Under the pieces are notes generated by a model, which searched no databases, was not told the DNA's origin, and saw only the letters and a list, made by a program, of their open reading frames with translations. Positions 10,243 to 23,136 of a DNA stretch of 64,000 bases are shown one piece after another. The first letter of the stretch is position 1. Every line of letters starts with the position of its first letter. This stretch comes from a virus (taxonomy: Duplodnaviria; Caudoviricetes), in the IMG/VR virus record IMGVR_UViG_3300011116_001007. One strand, written 5' to 3'. Position numbers and translations under genes: made by a program.

Positions 10243-10719
10243 TTAAATGTACCAAATTTCTCGAAATCCTTCTTCCAAAGTGGGCTCTTCCCAATTGGCA
10301 ATCATATGATCAACTACTGCTTCGGGGATTATTTTCCCAGAATCATATCGATTTTGTAGTCGCCGATCCAATTCATCACGCGGCGGTGTACGGAATACCA
10401 CAGCAATGGCATAGTACTCGGGCAACATGTTGAACTTCTTTCGACGACTTGCCGCAGTGGTCGAAGTTTGATCCCACACAATATCTTGACTGGCTTCACG
10501 AGCATGCACTACATCGCCGGTCATGTGCTCCACACATTTGGGCATGACTTCTTTGAAAACTTCGCTGTAGGTCTTGCCTGCACTTTTTGCAAACTCTTCT
10601 ACATAACGATCTGTGGAAATGTATGCAGCTTCTTGCAGCCAAGTTTGATCAGAATGCCAGGTACTTTTTCCACTACCTGGCACTCCAACCAAAACGTACA
10701 ATTTACATTGTCGGTCCAT
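10243..10719 (-). CDS. P-loop (AAA_33/PNK-like) kinase
   Basis: GVPGSGKST, ISTD, WDQT motifs. Confidence 0.85.
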   Translation of the reverse strand: MDRQCKLYVLVGVPGSGKSTWHSDQTWLQEAAYISTDRYVEEFAKSAGKTYSEVFKEVMPKCVEHMTGDVVHAREASQDIVWDQTSTTAASRRKKFNMLPEYYAIAVVFRTPPRDELDRRLQNRYDSGKIIPEAVVDHMIANWEEPTLEEGFREIWYI

Positions 10720-11293
10720 TACCGTTCCTAAATCCAATTTCCCCACCTTCTTCAACAATGCGTTTTTGCACATCTTCAAACAAGATAGGAGCAAAGTCTG
10801 TGTGCTCTACACATACACAATGATAGCGTGGATCAACAACCTTGGTCACAAATTCACCAGCAGCAGGCCCTGCCTTCATTACTCTGTTGGCATGCAAGTG
10901 TCCGTGAATGTTCACACCAAAGCGACCCAACGATTCCTCGTGGATGGGTATGTGACTCAAGATCATTCCGTTCATCACATGGTATGCACGTAACTCGCGA
11001 AAGTGTTCACGGTACTCATCATCTCGAAAGATGTCATGATTACCGCGGATCAAAACTTTGTCACCGTTCAACCTACGCATGATACCTAAGGACTTGCGGT
11101 TGATAACAACATCGCCTAAATGGTATACCTTGTCTGTGGGCCGGACACGTTCGTTCCAGGCCTTGACCATGGCCTCGTCCATTTCCTCAGGCGTGTCCCA
11201 AGGACGTAATTTGGTCACACCGTCGTTGCGAGTGAAATGGCACACACCTTTGTGTCCAAAGTGTGTGTCTGATACTAAAAATACTGATGGCAT
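10703..11293 (-). CDS. calcineurin-like metallophosphoesterase
   Basis: SDTHFGH, LGD, GNHD, HGH motifs. Confidence 0.9.
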   Translation of the reverse strand: MPSVFLVSDTHFGHKGVCHFTRNDGVTKLRPWDTPEEMDEAMVKAWNERVRPTDKVYHLGDVVINRKSLGIMRRLNGDKVLIRGNHDIFRDDEYREHFRELRAYHVMNGMILSHIPIHEESLGRFGVNIHGHLHANRVMKAGPAAGEFVTKVVDPRYHCVCVEHTDFAPILFEDVQKRIVEEGGEIGFRNGNGPTM

Positions 11294-11311
11294 AATGTCC
11301 TCTTTGTGTGT

Positions 11312-11340
11312 ATTATACAACAATGAACATTACTGGTCAA
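11312..11340 (-). promoter_or_regulatory. sigma70-type promoter
   Basis: TTGACC-N17-TATAAT. Confidence 0.8.
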
Positions 11341-13203: not shown

Positions 13204-13674
13204 TCAGGCTGCTTTCAAACCTTTCAGTCGGTCAGCAGCATACGAAGCAGCAAATGCCTGTGGCTTCACAAAAGGTATCACGTTGCAAGTGCCTTTGATG
13301 TAGCCAATGGCCTGTGAAATAACACAGCTGGATCCGTGCATTTCGTCTGGGTTGATGTCAAGATGTACTTCAACATCACGACCTTCCAGCACGTCGGCCA
13401 GTTTGAGATACAGTTCGGACACCTTGTACACTTCGGTCATGAGACGCATGGCTGGCTTGCCTGGCTTTGCGTCGTACACACGTTCGCGATGTACTTCACC
13501 AAACAGTTTGCATCCGTTGTTGCCGTTGATGTGTACCACAATGGCCAACACATAGTCGGCCCACCATTCACCATCGATCTTGATTCTTTCACTGTCGCAA
13601 CCAATGTAGATACGTGTTTCTGGTGTTTGTGCTTGAATAAATTCAGACACTTGTTTTAAATCTAATTTTTTCAT
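13204..13674 (-). CDS. RNase H-like YkuK/DUF458 family protein
   Basis: YIGCDS, EV..S, VHLDIN, ASYAADR motifs. Confidence 0.8.
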   Translation of the reverse strand: MKKLDLKQVSEFIQAQTPETRIYIGCDSERIKIDGEWWADYVLAIVVHINGNNGCKLFGEVHRERVYDAKPGKPAMRLMTEVYKVSELYLKLADVLEGRDVEVHLDINPDEMHGSSCVISQAIGYIKGTCNVIPFVKPQAFAASYAADRLKGLKAA

Positions 13675-17570: not shown

Positions 17571-17659
17571 ACCATATGGAAACACACTAAAAGTAATCTA
17601 ACATACAAGAGCGCCGTGCGAACGTATGCTAAAAGGTATCTAATGTGTTTGCATATGGT
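17571..17659 (-). repeat. ACCATAT-stem element, copy A
   Basis: ACCATATGCAAACACATT..AGTGTGTTTCCATATGGT. Confidence 0.8.
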
Positions 17660-18551
17660 GAAAGGACTGAGAATACATCCTCTCCAACAACACCTCGGAC
17701 ATTATTGTACACCTTGCGAGTATACTTTCTTCCGACTTCCACCCGGCCCTATTTCTAGGTATCCTGGTCTGCTGTCAGCATCGCCGTTTAGAGACAGGCA
17801 GTAGTCTTGACGCTGTATGCTATTCTACGCTTTCTATTCCGTTGACCTTGCGAGCCATTCAAGTGCGCTAACACCTTACGAAACTTCCTGCATAAACTAA
17901 TGTCACCTTGCGAGCTTCATTAGACTTGGTTCTCTTGCGAGCCAAGTATTAGATGCTTTTCACATACAACCGAGTCAGTCTTTGCGTTTTAATCGTTAGA
18001 AGGAGTTGAACCTTCAGTCTATTTCTTAAAAGGAAATCGGCCTACCATTAGCCTATAACTGAACCTACTGCGATGTGCTGACTCAGTTGCTGCATACTCT
18101 TTTGGAATACACAATACAACACACCACGTACCTTTTGTCTTGCGAACTACTCAGTCGTCTTTTGCGATCGGTGTGTCCCCGCCTTTCGACAGACCCACTA
18201 ACCACTCAAACTGCATACGAGCCCTTGGGTGCAACCCCTCGGACAAATACGCTACCCTTTCTCATACTAATTAACTGGACTGGTTTAGTTGTGAAGTCAG
18301 CACCACCTGTTACTTTCCATCGACTCAAGTTCCCCTTGCGGGCTTGTAAATCAACGTTCTTTCCACAACATCCAGCGTCATTGTTACAACCACCGGTCTT
18401 ATCAGTGATCGCTACCTCACGGTAGTGAGCAGGCTTGCTTAAACGAACTATCTCTAGCGGAGTTATGTAGGCATACCTCCTTTGGCTGTGTCACCACAGT
18501 TATTCTTCATAAACCAGCAAGCTGGCTTATAGGACGTTAAACCGCCCTTGA
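17656..18551 (-). ncRNA. probable GOLLD large ncRNA
   Basis: ~890-nt non-coding unit from a promoter to ACCA, at least 6 CGCAAG tetraloop hairpins, 3' GGATGTATTCTCAGTCC similar to my recollection of GOLLD ends, tRNA-array context; Rfam not run. Confidence 0.65.
17991..18062 (-). tRNA. tRNA-Lys(TTT)-like, embedded in the large ncRNA
   Basis: D-arm GGCT-AATGGT-AGGCC, loop CTTTTAA, T-arm GAAGG-TTCAACT-CCTTC; bulged acceptor, no CCA. Confidence 0.65.
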
Positions 18552-18557
18552 AATCTT

Positions 18558-18586
18558 ATTGTAGCATCAAAGTTGATCCTTGTCAA
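18558..18586 (-). promoter_or_regulatory. sigma70-type promoter of the large ncRNA
   Basis: TTGACA-N17-TACAAT. Confidence 0.8.
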
Positions 18587-18596
18587 CTTGAGTTTT

Positions 18597-18680
18597 ACCA
18601 TATAGAAACACACTAGCCTGCAGGACTACTAATAGCTCACGGGTACGCCGCTACTACTAGGTAATGTGTTTTTATATGGT
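18597..18680 (-). repeat. ACCATAT-stem element, copy B
   Basis: ACCATATAAAAACACATT..AGTGTGTTTCTATATGGT; starts with the tRNA-Lys ACCA. Confidence 0.8.
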
Positions 18681-18752
18681 AGGACCGCCCGGATTCGAAC
18701 CGGGAACTGGCGGATTAAAAGTCCGCTGTGATAACCATTTCACCACGATCCC
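18677..18752 (-). tRNA. trnK: tRNA-Lys(TTT)
   Basis: Canonical cloverleaf. Confidence 0.96.
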
Positions 18753-18756
18753 ATGT

Positions 18757-18831
18757 TGGTCCCTCTACCGAGATTTGAACTCGGACGTCACGGATTAAGA
18801 GTCCGGCATGCTGCCTTAACATCTTAGAGGG
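18757..18831 (-). tRNA. trnK: tRNA-Lys(CTT)
   Basis: Cloverleaf, loop CTCTTAA. Confidence 0.9.
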
Positions 18832-18925
18832 TTGGTATGTAAAATTGTCTTTCACGTGCCAACCCGGACCTACATGGGATCTGGATTGACACTAGCGTTT
18901 AGCACGTTTCATGTCATGTTTCCTT

Positions 18926-19186
18926 TTAAATGTGTTCTTTGTTGAGTCGAGCTCGAGCCGCAGTAGCAAATTCGCTAAAGTTGCCGCACTTGTCTTCCCA
19001 CCGCAACATACTACGGCAAGTGTAACTGATGTCACGCTTGTTCAAGCATACTGCTTCTTGATTGAGTTCACCGTTGACATACACACGGCAGTGATAGTTG
19101 CCGTCAATATTGCGAACAGTTACTTCGTGATCTACTTCGCCCAGGATACAACGCTGGATGCGAACTAGTTGTTTGTATCGTTCCAT
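18926..19186 (-). CDS. hypothetical protein
   Basis: MERYKQL.. with AAGGAG RBS. Confidence 0.7.
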   Translation of the reverse strand: MERYKQLVRIQRCILGEVDHEVTVRNIDGNYHCRVYVNGELNQEAVCLNKRDISYTCRSMLRWEDKCGNFSEFATAARARLNKEHI

Positions 19187-19205
19187 ACGTTCTCCTTTGA
19201 AAAAT

Positions 19206-19279
19206 TGGTGCCCCACGACAGAATCGAACTGCCATCACAGGATTACAAAACCAGTGTACTGCCATTGTACTAGTAGGGC
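19206..19279 (-). tRNA. trnT: tRNA-Thr(TGT)
   Basis: Cloverleaf; anticodon stem has two U-U mismatches. Confidence 0.8.
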
Positions 19280-19286
19280 GTGATTG

Positions 19287-19451
19287 TTAGGATGTCTTTG
19301 ATCTTTTGTCTATAGCACGTTGAATCTTGGCTCGGTGCTTGGGCCTGGCACTCTCCAACATCTTGGTGAGTTGAGCAACATTCAGCGGTCCCAGTCTGGG
19401 TTTGCCACTGTGATGCTTCATGGGATCGTTGCTTGTGTTAAATGATGACAT
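19287..19451 (-). CDS. small basic protein (54 aa)
   Basis: Hand-translated MSSFNTSNDPMKHHSGKPRLGPLNVAQL..; AGGA RBS. Confidence 0.6.
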   Translation of the reverse strand: MSSFNTSNDPMKHHSGKPRLGPLNVAQLTKMLESARPKHRAKIQRAIDKRSKTS

Positions 19452-19470
19452 TTTGTTTCCTAAATTAAAT

Positions 19471-19546
19471 TGGCTCCTCAGCGTGGGATCGAACCACGGA
19501 CATCTTGATTAACAGTCAAGTGCAACTACCGCTGTGCTACTGAGGA
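19471..19546 (-). tRNA. trnN: tRNA-Asn(GTT)
   Basis: Cloverleaf, G73-CCA. Confidence 0.95.
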
Positions 19547-19553
19547 ATAAACT

Positions 19554-19643
19554 TGGCGGAACGACTGAGACTCGAACTCAGAACCCGGATTACGCCGAGC
19601 GACAGATTAGCAATCTGCTCTAATACCATTATAGGACCGTTCC
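19554..19643 (-). tRNA. trnS: tRNA-Ser(GCT)
   Basis: Class II cloverleaf, G73. Confidence 0.95.
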
Positions 19644-19683
19644 GTGAAAATACTTATGCTGTATCGACAGCATATAAAAAACT

Positions 19684-19757
19684 TGGCGTACCCACTAGGA
19701 CTCGAACCTAGACTGACGGTTTTGGAGACCGCGATGCTGCCATTACACTATGGATAC
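19684..19757 (-). tRNA. trnW: tRNA-Trp(CCA)
   Basis: Cloverleaf, loop CTCCAAA. Confidence 0.95.
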
Positions 19758-19760
19758 ACA

Positions 19761-19835
19761 TGGTGGTTGTGGTTGGCATCGATCCAACCTCCTCGCCTTA
19801 TGAGGGCGGTACGCATCCATCTACGTCACACAACC
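19761..19835 (-). tRNA. trnM: tRNA-Met(CAT), probably elongator
   Basis: Loop CTCATAA; atypical T-loop ATCGATG. Confidence 0.8.
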
Positions 19836-19840
19836 AAAAC

Positions 19841-19917
19841 TGGGGTGTCTGATGGGGATCGAACCCACGCATGTCGGAATCACAACCCGAGGCCTTAACC
19901 ACTTGGCGACAGACACC
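19841..19917 (-). tRNA. trnH: tRNA-His(GTG)
   Basis: Encoded G-1:C73 pair, loop TTGTGAT. Confidence 0.95.
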
Positions 19918-19927
19918 ATATAACAAA

Positions 19928-20004
19928 TGGTACCACCTGAGAGATTCGAACTCCCAACCCCCGGATTCGTAATCCAGTGCTCTATCCAATTGAGCCAAGG
20001 CGGT
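19928..20004 (-). tRNA. trnR: tRNA-Arg(ACG)
   Basis: Cloverleaf, loop TTACGAA. Confidence 0.95.
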
Positions 20005-20053
20005 AAAAAACTGTCCAGGGACGAAGCCGTCAAAGGGCTGTATGGACTTGACT

Positions 20054-20131
20054 TGGAGTAGCGGGTGAGATTTGAACTCACGGTTTTTGGGATTTGCAAT
20101 CCCATGCATTGGGCCACTCTGCCACCGCTAC
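20054..20131 (-). tRNA. trnC: tRNA-Cys(GCA)
   Basis: Cloverleaf, U73-CCA. Confidence 0.95.
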
Positions 20132-20138
20132 ATGTTGT

Positions 20139-20214
20139 TGGTGCAACCTGTAGGAATCGAACCTACTTCAACGGCTCTTCAGGCCGCCGCTATGACCACA
20201 TCAGCTAAAGTTGC
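20139..20214 (-). tRNA. trnF: tRNA-Phe(GAA)
   Basis: Cloverleaf, loop CTGAAGA. Confidence 0.95.
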
Positions 20215-20215
20215 T

Positions 20216-20289
20216 TGGCAGGGACACTAGGGATCGAACCTAGGCTAACAGAGTCAAAGTCTGTTGTGCTACCATTACACAATGTCCCA
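20216..20289 (-). tRNA. trnQ: tRNA-Gln(TTG)
   Basis: Cloverleaf, weak 1:72 pair, G73. Confidence 0.95.
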
Positions 20290-20296
20290 ACAAAAC

Positions 20297-20372
20297 TGGT
20301 GGAGGATAACGGATTCGAACCGTTTGCTCCTGGTTGCAAACCAGGTGTGTTAGCCAAGTATACCAATCCCCC
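20297..20372 (-). tRNA. trnA: tRNA-Ala(TGC)
   Basis: G3:U70 identity pair. Confidence 0.95.
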
Positions 20373-20476
20373 GAAAAAAACACAACATAGACGCTCTGCT
20401 ACTGGGCAGACTAGGATTACGCCTTCTATGTTGTTTTGTATAGAGGTGCCGTAATCGAAGCTCTCTATACAATAAC

Positions 20477-20560
20477 TGGTGGAGACAGATGGATTCGAAC
20501 CACCGCGCTATTAAGAACAGATTTACAGTCTGTCGCAATCGACCACTCTGCCATGTCTCC
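20477..20560 (-). tRNA. trnY: tRNA-Tyr(GTA)
   Basis: Class II cloverleaf. Confidence 0.95.
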
Positions 20561-20785
20561 AAAATTGTTACACACTCTTGCGAATGTGTGTATTAAAACA
20601 GACTGTATGCTGTGGGAATAACATTTCTGTCAAGCGACCAGCAACGGATACGCAATCTGTTTTAATACGCTCGGATTTTTTTATGTACAAGAACATAAGC
20701 CATCCCCGAGGCCGCCCGTTTGCCCATGTTTTAAGTGCAGGCTAGGTCCACGTTACCTATTCACACTATTCAACTCTACAAAATG

Positions 20786-20814
20786 AAAAACCCCGGAGTT
20801 TTTAGTTCCGGGGT
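20786..20814 (-). terminator. intrinsic terminator (attenuator 1)
   Basis: ACCCCGGA-loop-TCCGGGGT-TTTT. Confidence 0.85.
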
Positions 20815-20839
20815 CCTTTTGGGTATGTCTTGATACTTG

Positions 20840-20965
20840 TTACAGTATATGACTCCTCAAGGACCCGCGGGCTCCTGGAAATGTATTCACGCGACCATAG
20901 CCACGCGCCCAGGTACTTGCCTGATGCATGGGTTTAATCAACAGTGAACAGATTTGCGTTTTCAT
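20840..20965 (-). CDS. putative leaderless leader peptide 1 (41 aa)
   Basis: MKTQICSLLIKPMHQASTWARGYGRVNTFPGARGSLRSHIL; ATG 7 nt after TATAAT. Confidence 0.55.
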   Translation of the reverse strand: MKTQICSLLIKPMHQASTWARGYGRVNTFPGARGSLRSHIL

Positions 20966-20972
20966 AGTATCA

Positions 20973-21001
20973 ATTATACGTTATATATCTTAAGAAGTCA
21001 A
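20973..21001 (-). promoter_or_regulatory. sigma70-type promoter of leader 1 / tRNA array
   Basis: TTGACT-N17-TATAAT. Confidence 0.85.
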
Positions 21002-21046
21002 CCTCTTAAAATATCTTGTGTTGTATTTATACAACACAGGTTAAAA

Positions 21047-21125
21047 TGGATGCGGAGGATGGATTTGAACCACCGATCTGAAGCTTATGAGACTTCCGGG
21101 GACGACCGAACTCCCCCACTCCGCT
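21047..21125 (-). tRNA. trnfM: tRNA-Met(CAT), initiator-like
   Basis: 1:72 mismatch, loop CTCATAA; lacks the three anticodon-stem G-C pairs. Confidence 0.75.
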
Positions 21126-21139
21126 GCATGTATTTATCT

Positions 21140-21168
21140 AGTATAACACCATTGTTTTTAGTGGTCAA
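21140..21168 (-). promoter_or_regulatory. sigma70-type promoter
   Basis: TTGACC-N17-TATACT. Confidence 0.75.
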
Positions 21169-21184
21169 CTGATTTTGGTAAAAT

Positions 21185-21276
21185 TGGCGGAAGACGGAGG
21201 AGTCGAACCCCATCCCTGTTAAGAGAACCTGGTTTTCAAGGCCAGTCGCAGGACCATCCCCGCTGCATCATCTTCC
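21185..21276 (-). tRNA. trnS: tRNA-Ser(TGA)
   Basis: Class II cloverleaf, G73. Confidence 0.92.
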
Positions 21277-21281
21277 TGAAT

Positions 21282-21366
21282 TGGTACGAGTGGCCGGACT
21301 CGAACCGGCACGCCATTACGACCTCAGATTTTAAGTCTGATGCGGCTACCATTACGCCACACTCGC
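21282..21366 (-). tRNA. trnL: tRNA-Leu(TAA)
   Basis: Class II cloverleaf. Confidence 0.95.
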
Positions 21367-21375
21367 TTTTTTGAT

Positions 21376-21451
21376 TGGTGCCCCAGGGGAGACTCGAACT
21401 CCCAGAATTTGGTTTCTAAGACCAACATGGCTACCGTTACATCACCGGGGC
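21376..21451 (-). tRNA. trnL: tRNA-Leu(TAG), short variable loop
   Basis: Loop CTTAGAA, 5-nt variable loop. Confidence 0.85.
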
Positions 21452-21456
21452 TGATA

Positions 21457-21679
21457 TTGAATTTGCAAGTAGTAGCACCACACTATTGCTACCATTCCCC
21501 CGAATTAACAAGCTCGAGCGGGGTTCGGTACGTCACTTGGGATACAGGTCCAGTACAGTCTCCGTTGCAGACCTCCGCAGTTGCCCGCGGGTGGGAGTTG
21601 AACCCATTAACCTTCTACTATAAAGTACCTTCGAAGAATACAGTATAGCGTGACTTTCTCTTGCTGACACTTACAAAAC
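21457..21679 (-). ncRNA. T-loop-containing RNA, copy 1
   Basis: Ordered conserved blocks shared with 22495-22680 and a terminal stem. Confidence 0.7.
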
Positions 21680-21772
21680 TGGGCCTCTGAGAGTGGAATT
21701 GAACCACCAAGGTTTTTGGAACCTTTTTGACCTACTAGTAAGGACGACTTTACCGATTCGTCTACTCAGAGA
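21680..21772 (-). tRNA. atypical class II tRNA with possible CTA (amber) anticodon
   Basis: 8-bp acceptor, D-arm GAC-GAATCGGTAAA-GTC, loop TACTAGT, long variable arm, T-loop TTCAATT, CCA. Confidence 0.55.
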
Positions 21773-21777
21773 TAACT

Positions 21778-21850
21778 TGGTGTGTGGGGGTGGGTTCGCT
21801 CACCCTTTCACTGACATACATCAGCACCGTCACTAATCCGGCTCTCACAC
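21778..21850 (-). pseudogene. degenerate tRNA-like element
   Basis: Acceptor GTGTGAG/CCCACAC + ACCA; abnormal anticodon and T loops. Confidence 0.5.
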
Positions 21851-21855
21851 ATAAA

Positions 21856-21890
21856 AGGTGGATAACAGATGCCGTAGCATCCGCTTCTCC
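21856..21890 (-). ncRNA. minihelix RNA, copy a
   Basis: GGAGAAGCGGATGC-TACG-GCATCTGTTATCC-ACC. Confidence 0.6.
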
Positions 21891-21896
21891 ATAACT

Positions 21897-21971
21897 TGGC
21901 GGTCTCAAGGGGTAACGATCCCCTTCTTCAACAGTGACAGTGTTGTGTGCGTCCATGAACACTTTGAGACC
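21897..21971 (-). tRNA. trnD: tRNA-Asp(GTC)
   Basis: Cloverleaf, G73; T-loop ATCGTTA. Confidence 0.9.
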
Positions 21972-22165
21972 AAATAAGGACAAGCTACTGGTTTCCACAC
22001 CAGCCCTTGATTGAGCGGTTACTCTGTCCATCTTTTTTATCTGGTATCTGTGTGCAGAAAGATAACTGCCTATCAGATTCAGGATTGCTCCGCTAACGGT
22101 CTTCTGCCACCGGACCTCTATCGCTAGTCAAACGCTACTTTAACGAAAGTAGTAACGGGATTCTT

Positions 22166-22280
22166 ACCATATAGGAACACACTACGTATCTTAGTCACGT
22201 GTAGTTTTGGAGGGCTACACTACAGACCCAAATAGTTAGACCGCGAATCTAACCCAACCTGGAGTATGTTCTTATATGGC
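22166..22280 (-). repeat. ACCATAT-stem element, copy C
   Basis: GCCATATAAGAACATACT..AGTGTGTTCCTATATGGT. Confidence 0.8.
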
Positions 22281-22353
22281 AAACTCATTGCGGACAGGAT
22301 TCGAACCTGCATCACCCACTAAGGGCATCCTAACCACTAGAAGACCGCGAGTT
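22277..22353 (-). pseudogene. tRNA-like element with truncated anticodon arm
   Basis: Intact D (AGTGGTTAGGA) and T (GCAGG-TTCGAAT-CCTGT) arms; anticodon arm reduced to CCC-TTAGT-GGG; bulged acceptor; GCCA end. Confidence 0.6.
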
Positions 22354-22401
22354 CCTGAGGGCAATTACTCCCCAGCACGGATGCTACCTGCAGATAACAT
22401 T

Positions 22402-22484
22402 ACCATATAGGAACACACTTTAGTAAGCCCTACGCATCCGACAAAGTTGTCACGCATCCAAAGCAAAATGTGTTTTTATATAAT
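22402..22484 (-). repeat. ACCATAT-stem element, copy D
   Basis: ATTATATAAAAACACATT..AGTGTGTTCCTATATGGT. Confidence 0.75.
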
Positions 22485-22494
22485 ACCATATAAA

Positions 22495-22680
22495 TTGAAT
22501 TTGTAAGTAGCAGCACCTCACTCATTGCTACCATTCTACCTGTATTTTCTGTGAAGCCGCGGACAGGATAGAGGTACGTAGTAATAGTAGCTACTTAGCA
22601 GTTGCCATGTTGCCGGACTCGAACCGTTGCCTCATAAGGTTTTCGACGCCTTACTTTCACTACATCTACACTTACAAAAC
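22495..22680 (-). ncRNA. T-loop-containing RNA, copy 2
   Basis: Paralog of 21457-21679. Confidence 0.7.
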
Positions 22681-22681
22681 T

Positions 22682-22716
22682 TGGTGGATAACAGATGCCG
22701 CAGCACCCGCTTCTCC
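22682..22716 (-). ncRNA. minihelix RNA, copy b
   Basis: GGAGAAGCGGGTGC-TGCG-GCATCTGTTATCC-ACCA. Confidence 0.6.
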
Positions 22717-22722
22717 ATAACT

Positions 22723-22797
22723 TGGTAGAGCATAGCGGAGTCGAACCGCTCTTAGTGGACTGAAAACCCACTGTCCTAACCGATAGACGAATGCTCC
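22723..22797 (-). tRNA. trnE: tRNA-Glu(TTC)
   Basis: Cloverleaf, loop TTTTCAG. Confidence 0.95.
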
Positions 22798-22804
22798 ATG
22801 ATTC

Positions 22805-23040
22805 ACTATATGAAAACACAATTATACAGGAACTTTGCTGATAAAATCTAATCTAGCTATGATTAGACCAATCGCCGTCATTACTGCCTACCTGTTTCGT
22901 CTTCCTCATCTTCATGGCCTAAGCCACTGATTCAGCATCTTGTAAGTGGAGGAGTAGCCAGCCACGGCGGGGCTCAAACCCATAATCCTATCACTCACCT
23001 AACGATGTAGGTAACCTGTATAATTGTGTTTACATATAGT
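22805..23040 (-). repeat. ACCATAT-stem element, copy E (26-bp stem)
   Basis: ACTATATGTAAACACAATTATACAGG..CCTGTATAATTGTGTTTTCATATAGT around a structured 184-nt cargo. Confidence 0.8.
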
Positions 23041-23136
23041 GCTCAGAACTGAATCTGAGTACACTATACAAAATCAAATTTTTAACGAACTTGCTGCACT
23101 GTGTCGATGCACTGTGCTGCTTTCTAACTAGTCTCT

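Follow-up and report, generated by a model that had tools for sequence, protein, structure and literature searches.

A CCA-Registered RNA Hairpin Family in the tRNA Arrays of Uncultured Freshwater Phages

Five imperfect inverted repeats are spread over 5.5 kb within the transfer RNA (tRNA) array of IMG/VR virus record IMGVR_UViG_3300011116_001007, and they raise the question of what kind of element has nearly constant arms, an almost unrestricted loop, and, in several copies, a first strand beginning in the 3′ end of the RNA that precedes it. The window, that is, the whole 64-kb stretch of DNA analysed (64,000 nucleotides), is a piece of a large uncultured phage genome. It encodes 33 tRNAs between 11.9 and 26.6 kb, all on the minus strand, together with a permuted transfer-messenger RNA (ARAGORN, Rfam). 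For the hairpin region, no real match to cultured phages (INPHARED) is returned by megablast; the public runs that contain window DNA are labelled as viral, riverine, lake-water, freshwater, and sediment metagenomes. The five stems are members of a large, phage-specific family of RNA hairpins of uncultured freshwater phages.

An initial annotation of the sequence had proposed five stems between positions 17571 and 23040, and the five inverted repeats are present at those places. The reading direction had to be corrected: every called gene of the region, including the tRNAs, is on the minus strand, so that the hairpins must be read on that strand as well. The hairpins and the RNAs to which they are joined are the following (bit scores of hairpins are those of the family covariance model).

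17571-17659, minus strand: hairpin A, directly 3′ of the GOLLD RNA; -36.5 kcal/mol, z -8.3; 57.5 bits.
17664-18590, minus strand: full-length GOLLD RNA; Rfam 202 bits over 17664-18127.
18597-18680, minus strand: hairpin B; -34.8 kcal/mol, z -4.7; 60.2 bits.
18677-18752, minus strand: tRNA-Lys(UUU), 67 bits; its A73-CCA76 is identical with positions 1-4 of hairpin B.
22166-22280, minus strand: hairpin C, with a loop of ~80 nt; -43.1 kcal/mol; 48.2 bits.
22281-22400, minus strand: RNA between hairpins D and C, consisting of two small hairpins followed by a tRNA-like cloverleaf.
22402-22484, minus strand: hairpin D, A·C at positions 9 and 10; -26 kcal/mol; 52.1 bits.
22804-23041, minus strand: hairpin E, a 27-bp stem with U·U at position 9; -90.8 kcal/mol, z -6.4.

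Folded on the minus strand, the five hairpins reach -26 to -91 kcal/mol (z -3.2 to -8.3), with arm-to-arm spacings of about 46 to 184 nt. The arm motif AYYATATNNRAACAC has 10 matches in the window against 0.88 expected, a number attained in none of 100 shuffles; nine of the ten are hairpin arms, the diverged second arm of C being without a match, and the match at 2622 is unrelated. Hairpin B represents the canonical form, with the 5′ arm ACCAUAUAAAAACACAUUA running from 18680 to 18662, the 3′ arm UAGUGUGUUUCUAUAUGGU from 18615 to 18597, A·C at position 9, and U·G at position 17. In the window, position 9 is irregular in every copy, just as initially annotated (C·C in A, A·C in B, C, and D, U·U in E), and the adjacent positions 8 and 10 covary as A-U or G-C, with G-C found at position 8 of A and at position 10 of C.

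The start of A, B, and C in an N-CCA end could likewise be verified. In B, it is A73-C74-C75-A76 of tRNA-Lys(UUU) as called by ARAGORN; in A, it is ACCA (17659-17656), 4 nt past the Rfam match to GOLLD; and in C, it is GCCA (22280-22277), which ends the upstream RNA behind its tRNA-like cloverleaf. Hairpin D begins with AUUA, pairing with UGGU via two U·G wobbles. The sequence immediately upstream of it ends in UUUAUAUGGUA, which by eye resembles a leftover 3′ arm, and D thus has the form of the second hairpin of a tandem. Hairpin E has the base ACUA/UAGU without CCA, carries an insert of 184 nt, and is followed after 6 nt by tRNA-Glu. The family covariance model also returns one weak further match.

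20587-20671, minus strand: candidate sixth, diverged copy, GUAUUAAAACAGAUUG...CAGUCUGUUUUAAUAC; 25.5 bits, E 4e-4.

This candidate lies upstream of tRNA-Tyr; its 16-bp stem has one U·G wobble at the inner end and neither mismatch nor CCA.

The extent of the family was assessed with the 18-mer TACCATATAGRAACACAC, which is expected about once per 3.4e10 positions. It matches at least 120 IMG/VR contigs, in most of which the partner arm is found 35-130 nt away, and all loci listed are one-stranded tRNA arrays (2043 tRNAs in 118 loci). Four complete genomes of 190-367 kb have 1-3 hairpins each, all within the tRNA array. Among 185,579 prokaryote species, the two-arm pattern was recovered only from four contigs of metagenome-assembled genomes, which are probably mis-binned phage, and a blastn search with hairpin B against the cultured phages of INPHARED gave no real match. 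The initial annotation could not match the stems to a described element, and this stands: Rfam 15 has zero matches over the five hairpins, be it at the gathering score or at E <= 1 with permissive filters, and no description of the element was met in Rfam or in the searched literature. An array of the CRISPR or TIGR-like type was rejected, as the spacing is irregular and the copies are too few.

For the anatomy of the helix, 165 distinct copies from a relaxed search, oriented by the tRNA strand, were compared; pair counting was done on 140 aligned copies, and an independent set of 42 copies was collected via a neighbouring protein instead of via the hairpin. The consensus of the 165 copies is 5′-ACCAUAUAAAAACACAUU...AGUGUGUUUCUAUAUGGU-3′. 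Positions 1-8, 10-16, and 18 are paired in at least 89% of them, while positions 19 and 20 are free in sequence and paired in ~88% and ~59%, respectively. In the alignment, 91.9% of the cells are paired and 12 of the 20 pairs show changes on both sides; the covariation score of 0.21 compares with 0.115 for shuffled data (0.21 being reached in 0 of 500 shuffles) and with at most 0.068 when the partner strand is slid. Outside position 9, G·U pairs outnumber A·C/C·A pairs by 92 to 14 when the tRNA strand is read, which indicates selection on the RNA. An RNA of the antisense strand was rejected on the same count, since the A·C pair would turn into G·U there, but many G·U pairs of the sense strand would break. 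The hairpin structure is, thus, real and selected on the transcribed strand.

The irregular pairs are part of this structure. Position 17 is U·G in 107 of the 165 copies. Position 9 is A·C in 120, another mismatch in 18, Watson-Crick in 26, and U·G, the one G·U-type pair there, in a single copy, so that 138 of the 165 copies lack a pair at this position; no asymmetric pair is seen in the inverted form. The corresponding value is 121 of 140 in the aligned copies. A mismatch is also present in 41 of the 63 copies that were not selected by the search word (A·C 27, C·A 6, U·U 5, U·C 2, C·C 1) and in 26 of the 42 copies of the independent set. The mismatch had been described as invariant, which is correct inside the window; across the family, it is enriched and occurs in several base combinations, with position 9 unpaired in 62-86% and Watson-Crick in 14-38% of the copies, depending on the sample. 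The flanking positions 8 and 10 are paired in about 96-99%, and divergent copies retain both helix and mismatch by compensatory changes at otherwise invariant sites (position 7 in locus L143, position 12 in L152). Because the irregularity is kept by differing base combinations together with flanking compensatory changes, it is the irregularity as such that is selected. The idea that the A of position 9 preserves a T4-late-like TATAAA promoter on the sense strand only was discarded, since subfamilies without TATAAA (GC.., GU.., UG..) retain the mismatch.

The register of the helix on the preceding RNA is exact. In all 96 tRNA-adjacent copies, A76 of the tRNA is position 4 of the hairpin, and position 1 covaries with the discriminator base (A-U 122, G·U 18, G-C 4, U-A 3). 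A hairpin that follows another hairpin starts with RUUA, as D does, and pairs to UGGU by wobbles. On the other side, the next tRNA, mostly tRNA-Met(CAU), begins at the third-last base of the 3′ arm in 41 copies. The hairpins are located at boundaries between RNA units, be it tRNA and tRNA, GOLLD and the next unit, or, in a related variant, the mRNA of a Ro-like protein and a tRNA.

There is, in addition, a strong preference for tRNA-Lys(UUU), tRNA-Gln(UUG), and tRNA-Glu(UUC), which had not been noted in the initial annotation. Of the 96 copies, 68 have Lys(UUU), 8 have Glu(UUC), and 7 have Gln(UUG) as the upstream tRNA. In the independent set, the proportion of genes followed by a hairpin is 12/28 for Lys(UUU), 9/30 for Gln(UUG), and 6/37 for Glu(UUC), as opposed to 15/1088 for the remaining tRNAs (odds ratio 28; p = 2.5e-21). 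The pair of tRNA-Lys and hairpin is continued by at least 15 different tRNAs and is therefore not a single block of genes passed on by descent. In the window, the tRNA-Lys joined to a hairpin has no special anticodon loop, the loop being the canonical CUUUUAA. The A-run of the hairpin as a codon mimic for the preceding tRNA was rejected as well, since it is, by eye, inconsistent in the Glu and Gln copies.

In contrast to the arms, the loops are hypervariable. The 163 loops analysed fall into 112 clusters, and the shortest have about a dozen nt. They had been regarded as unrelated, structured sequences; unrelated they are, but mostly unstructured, with a median folding z of -0.66 and only 8.6% below -2, so that structured cargo was rejected. 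The release of different small cargo RNAs, which had been suggested, does not hold as a general rule, the insert of the E type alone being conserved. This insert (175-193 nt) is partly conserved in six other loci and is seen as contigs of ~190-220 nt in the RNA libraries of three studies; over hairpin E itself, RNA-library contigs extend over 22818-22975, 22822-23011, and 22791-23007. The start of the loop of hairpin C is resembled in loci L098 and L099.

A selected structure that is locked on the upstream N-CCA, has a kept irregularity, and matches neither Rfam nor a miniature inverted-repeat transposable element (MITE) would most economically be read as a processing cassette gating 3′ maturation. 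The hairpin may accordingly be a 3′-trailer processing or end-definition element that is cut by a double-strand-specific nuclease, an assignment that is favoured here, albeit tentatively and at somewhat less than even chance. In this scenario, the hairpin is transcribed together with the tRNA array. Its first four nucleotides are the discriminator and CCA of the preceding RNA, which is usually tRNA-Lys(UUU), less often tRNA-Gln(UUG) or tRNA-Glu(UUC), but also GOLLD or a tRNA-like RNA, and they pair with the last four, UGGN. In between, the AU-rich and nearly invariant helix of ~19 bp, with the mostly A·C, non-Watson-Crick position 9 and U·G at position 17, ends in a loop that is almost unrestricted in both sequence and length. 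This helix would serve as recognition and cleavage site of a double-strand-specific endonuclease, most likely host RNase III, as no phage-encoded partner is universal. Cleavage would part the upstream, NCCA-ending RNA from the downstream RNA and leave a short trailer, to be removed up to CCA by exonucleases. Positioning or restricting the cut would be the task of the irregular pairs, comparable to that of the internal loops in the RNase III sites of T7.

Such a role would explain why the hairpins stand at unit boundaries, how long the helix is, why the loop is free, and why CCA is clamped. RNase III sites are typically double-stranded over about two turns, and an internal loop may or may not be present; the helix found here has 19-27 bp with one mismatch. 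Helix length, AU-richness, and irrelevance of the loop fit the RNase III-type processing stems of T7 and of rRNA. In common with the RNase III hairpins of the T7/T3 early transcripts and the rRNA processing stems, the phage element has a helix of ~20 bp between units of a polycistronic RNA, an internal irregularity, which in those systems directs cleavage, sequence likeness within a phage, and a dispensable apex. Unlike them, it has the NCCA register, the preference for three tRNAs, a copy number of just 1-5 per genome, and a sequence conserved between widely diverged phages. The pairing of UGGN with a tRNA 3′ NCCA, where N covaries with the discriminator, resembles the UGGN-NCCA contact of the T-box antiterminator and the GGU-RCCA contact of RNase P; in the hairpin, however, both partners belong to one precursor molecule and pair in cis as the base of a long helix, and no regulatory switch is evident.

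Several observations weigh against a processing site of this kind. RNase III reads little sequence, and the near-invariance of the 19 bp in phages whose tRNAs are only 75-83% identical is therefore left unexplained. A generic site does not explain the Lys/Gln/Glu preference either, nor the 1-3 copies per array of ~30 tRNAs, and just 14 of the 29 tRNA-Lys(UUU) genes of an unbiased set have a hairpin. The mature ends implied for tRNA-Lys and tRNA-Met are blunt across the stem instead of showing the 2-nt stagger of RNase III, the products of which have 5′-phosphate and 3′-OH ends. The RNA libraries were examined as contigs, which cannot show cleavage. In favour of processing, a GOLLD contig of run X17 with a depth of 468 stops at 17661-17664, immediately ahead of hairpin A, and the bin of hairpin B has a depth of 0.26; against it, one low-depth RNA-library contig passes straight through hairpin A.

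Concerning the enzyme, a phage-encoded nuclease partner, as considered in the initial annotation, was not found: of the four complete hairpin-bearing genomes, none has RNase III and two have PF04308. Recurrent neighbours of the hairpins are a metallophosphoesterase, a P-loop polynucleotide-kinase-like protein, a PF04308 RNase H-like protein, a dual-specificity-phosphatase-like protein, an HNH endonuclease (16 loci), a homologue of RNA polymerase omega, and a protein with the domains DUF2828 and DUF7788. The RNase H-like protein of the window recurs in 22 hairpin loci.

13204-13674, minus strand: PF04308 RNase H-like protein (PHROG 11311), inside the tRNA array.

The calcineurin-like phosphoesterase (PHROG 547) recurs in 28 hairpin loci. 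In the window, its gene overlaps that of a P-loop polynucleotide-kinase-like protein (AAA_33) at 10243-11323 on the minus strand, and the two look like an RNA end-healing pair.

The last of the recurrent neighbours leads to another explanation, namely that the irregular helix docks a specific protein, in the manner of Y RNAs. The partner could be the Ro60-like protein of the phages, a protein of the host, or a nuclease of a defence system, which the hairpin would hold or decoy. The DUF2828/DUF7788 protein, of 470-490 amino acids, is encoded in 16 of the 120 hairpin loci listed. The 13 best PDB matches of a model built from it (L017:10795-12261 and 12 further loci) are all Ro60/TROVE proteins (E 1.6e-7 to 1.4e-4), which suggests a Y-RNA-like role of the hairpin; the protein appears to represent a large phage Ro60-like family with a Ro60/TROVE plus vWA fold. 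Relatives are found in at least 576 IMG/VR stretches, inside tRNA arrays, and 29 of the 34 well-covered loci with a Ro-like gene have hairpins. In about 29 of 73 loci, a related hairpin variant (CAUUUUGAARUAYAUU...) starts ~20-30 nt past the stop codon of the Ro-like gene. The design is, moreover, that of Y RNAs, in that the helix is nearly invariant, two irregular pairs are fixed, and the loop is free, and a T-arm-like hairpin occurs in 13 of the 165 loops against 1 expected, reminiscent of YrlA RNAs, which are tRNA-like Y RNAs (PMC4201824). The likeness to Y RNA/YrlA and Ro60 comprises the long stem, the conserved irregular helix, there protein-binding, variable loops with some T-arm-like modules, a location among phage tRNAs, and a Ro60-fold protein in a subset of the arrays. 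On the other hand, the Ro60-binding stem motif of known Y RNAs, which resembles GGUCCGA (PMC4201824), is absent from the arms ACCAUAUAAAAACACAUU / AGUGUGUUUCUAUAUGGU, the window has no Rfam Y-RNA match, and the element is a tRNA-fused trailer, not a free-standing gene. The Ro-like gene is missing from 9 of 10 large hairpin contigs, including four genomes rated 100% complete by CheckV, and from the 64-kb window; where it is present, canonical hairpins lie 0.5-9 kb away and not adjacent to it, and the adjacent variant is Watson-Crick at position 9, its loop sometimes having 3-4 nt only. With most hairpin genomes lacking the gene, a Y-RNA/Ro60 link is not obligatory, and the docking of a protein is altogether considered unlikely. 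An obligate phage partner among the proteins tested was rejected, the Ro60-like protein being encoded on 1 of 10 large contigs and in 0 of 4 complete genomes, next to the values for PF04308 and RNase III given above. As none of these is universal, an obligatory partner would therefore be a host factor or one still to be found.

Next to the Ro-like genes, a composite structure was observed. In loci L126-L160, it occupies the region 20-130 nt past the Ro-like stop codon: a small GC-rich hairpin, the loop of which is often of the GAAA type, is trailed by AUUUUGAA, which is at the same time the 5′ arm of a second, AU-rich hairpin of 15-25 bp; a tRNA starts a few nt later. Together, the two hairpins form a composite that resembles a terminator and is akin to the hairpin family.

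The fact that the 5′ arm of this Ro-adjacent variant doubles as the U-tract of a terminator-like hairpin also bears on the rather improbable explanation that the family acts on transcription, as a factor-dependent terminator, pause site, or insulator closing one RNA unit. This would agree with the position of B, which ends a run of 14 tRNAs 10 nt ahead of the GOLLD promoter, with that of A, which closes GOLLD, and with hairpins elsewhere that stand at the end of the array before protein genes. Yet the canonical stem is not followed by a U-tract, and a terminator needs neither the CCA register nor a conserved mismatch. The 41 copies in which the next tRNA begins inside the stem imply that transcription must read through. 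An intrinsic terminator was rejected, because these copies run into the next tRNA and the AU-rich stem continues into GGUA.., AAAAC.. or similar sequences. Recombination at the DNA level, with the arms as portable homology or as strand-specific recombinase sites for the swapping of cassettes, is judged improbable to the same degree. It would account for one loop type following tRNA-Glu, Gln, Thr, or Lys in different phages, for the many successors of tRNA-Lys plus hairpin, and for the bracketing of GOLLD by two copies. It would also fit an RNA-library contig that joins the two DNA flanks of the stretch beginning with tRNA-Lys(UUU) and ending with hairpin A, only 89 other letters lying in between, arms that are more conserved than the surrounding tRNAs, the HNH endonucleases, and the status of G·T as the best-tolerated mismatch in single-stranded DNA. 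However, there are 1-3 copies per complete genome, in a single orientation and in exact CCA register, and the compensatory changes at the non-conserved positions 19-20 show that folding, not homology, is required. Among the recurrent neighbours scanned, which do not comprise every neighbouring open reading frame, there is no integrase or transposase. Target-site duplications are absent as well, direct repeats of 2-5 nt being at or below chance for either possible boundary, and a MITE or insertion sequence (IS) was thus rejected, also in view of the low copy number, the confinement to the tRNA array, and the constant orientation to the tRNAs. The arms do not appear to fit the attC R and L boxes, the R′′/R′ consensus of which is RYYYAAC/GTTRRRY. 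What the hairpins have in common with attC sites and the inverted repeats of MITE/IS elements are imperfect repeats, a fixed unpaired position, and a variable centre; dispersal is not seen. Another candidate, the PeSL promoter-terminator cassette of T4-type phages (PMC2839356, PMC4122927), is similar as a conserved intergenic stem-loop of large phages that flanks exchangeable modules. PeSLs combine an early promoter with many copies between protein genes and act at the DNA or transcription level; the hairpins lack an internal promoter (one is found next to B alone, 10 nt downstream), have 1-5 copies, show selection of the RNA type, and were not assigned to this class.

Two further possibilities start from the attached tRNA. 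Phage tRNA arrays have come to be seen as countering host nucleases that cut tRNA, and PARIS targets tRNA-Lys(UUU) (PMC11464382, PMC12409363). The hairpin could be an anti-defence module tied to tRNAs with xm5s2U34, either by creating a CCA-clamped, masked pro-form that is released on demand or by means of the irregular, U-rich helix, which would hold or decoy a tRNA-targeting nuclease of the host; this is deemed very unlikely. Lys-UUU, Gln-UUG, and Glu-UUC all carry xm5s2U34 and are the classic prey of anticodon nucleases. Should it be true, the hairpin would be an RNA-based counter-defence element fused to a tRNA. Still less probable is a tRNA-linked precursor from the arms of which a short RNA would be cut to act by base pairing, comparable to a microRNA precursor or to the tRNA-hairpin units found in murine gammaherpesvirus 68; a target would then keep the arms constant and leave the loop free. 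Conserved arms, a hypervariable loop, a central mismatch, the position directly behind a tRNA, and the occasional tandems of two or three hairpins are in line with it; against it, we know of no bacterial pathway for such precursors, no target is known, and short RNAs are not visible in contig data.

Regarding the RNAs between the hairpins, GOLLD positions 10-933 are conserved according to nhmmer in loci L082, L020, L045, L030, L002, and L096. GOLLD thus fills the whole of 18590-17664, between hairpin B, which precedes it, and hairpin A, which closes it. The sigma-70-type promoter of GOLLD, TTGACA (18586-18581) and TACAAT (18563-18558) at a distance of 17 nt, starts 10 nt past hairpin B, and the junction of GOLLD, NCCA, and hairpin is kept in the relatives L045 and L030. 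Long-range pairing of the 5′ arm of B with the 3′ arm of A around GOLLD need not be invoked, because genomes with a single hairpin exist. A tRNA-Lys(UUU)-like module is embedded in GOLLD at 17991-18062 on the minus strand; in the GOLLD contig of an RNA library (X17 record 15), it is swapped for 65 other letters, so that this linker module is exchangeable between relatives.

In the conserved RNA at 22281-22400, the T arm of the cloverleaf is normal (GCAGG-UUCGAAU-CCUGU), but the "anticodon" loop has 5 nt; the RNA ends just before the GCCA of hairpin C. It is called neither by ARAGORN nor by Rfam and recurs after hairpins in loci L003, L021, L030, L039, L045, L055, L084, L093, L096, and L120. 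Elsewhere in the array, a direct repeat of 43 nt, 95% identical, lies directly 3′ of tRNA-Asp and tRNA-Glu (21857-21899 and 22683-22725, minus strand); this repeat represents a conserved tRNA trailer of another kind, with a similar sequence in L091. A tRNA of 93 nt at 21680-21772 on the minus strand has the anticodon CUA and is of the amber-suppressor type, labelled "Pyl" by ARAGORN, and a tRNA-Sec-like match at 21189-21276 on the minus strand remains below threshold (36.8 bits versus a gathering score of 47). Very deep RNA-library contigs cover the unannotated stretches 21977-22125 and 21568-21761 (minus strand) between tRNAs, with depths of up to 11,574 and 7,143 in X19 and of 1,540 in X16; these are probably abundant small RNAs.

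To our knowledge, almost nothing has been established about the expression and processing of phage tRNA arrays. A processing-type hairpin in a polycistronic RNA is a known kind of element, here with unusual and well-defined features. The finding is that of a widespread, sharply defined RNA element outside Rfam, which is fused in CCA register to the most-attacked tRNAs and also brackets GOLLD, a giant RNA of unknown function. Even if it is merely an RNase III site, it would still be a useful annotation feature for the abundant jumbo phages of freshwater. The family provides a covariance model and, with positions 9 and 17 and the UGGN foot, targets for mutation, by which a testable link is offered between tRNA maturation, the biogenesis of GOLLD, and the phage Ro60-like family.

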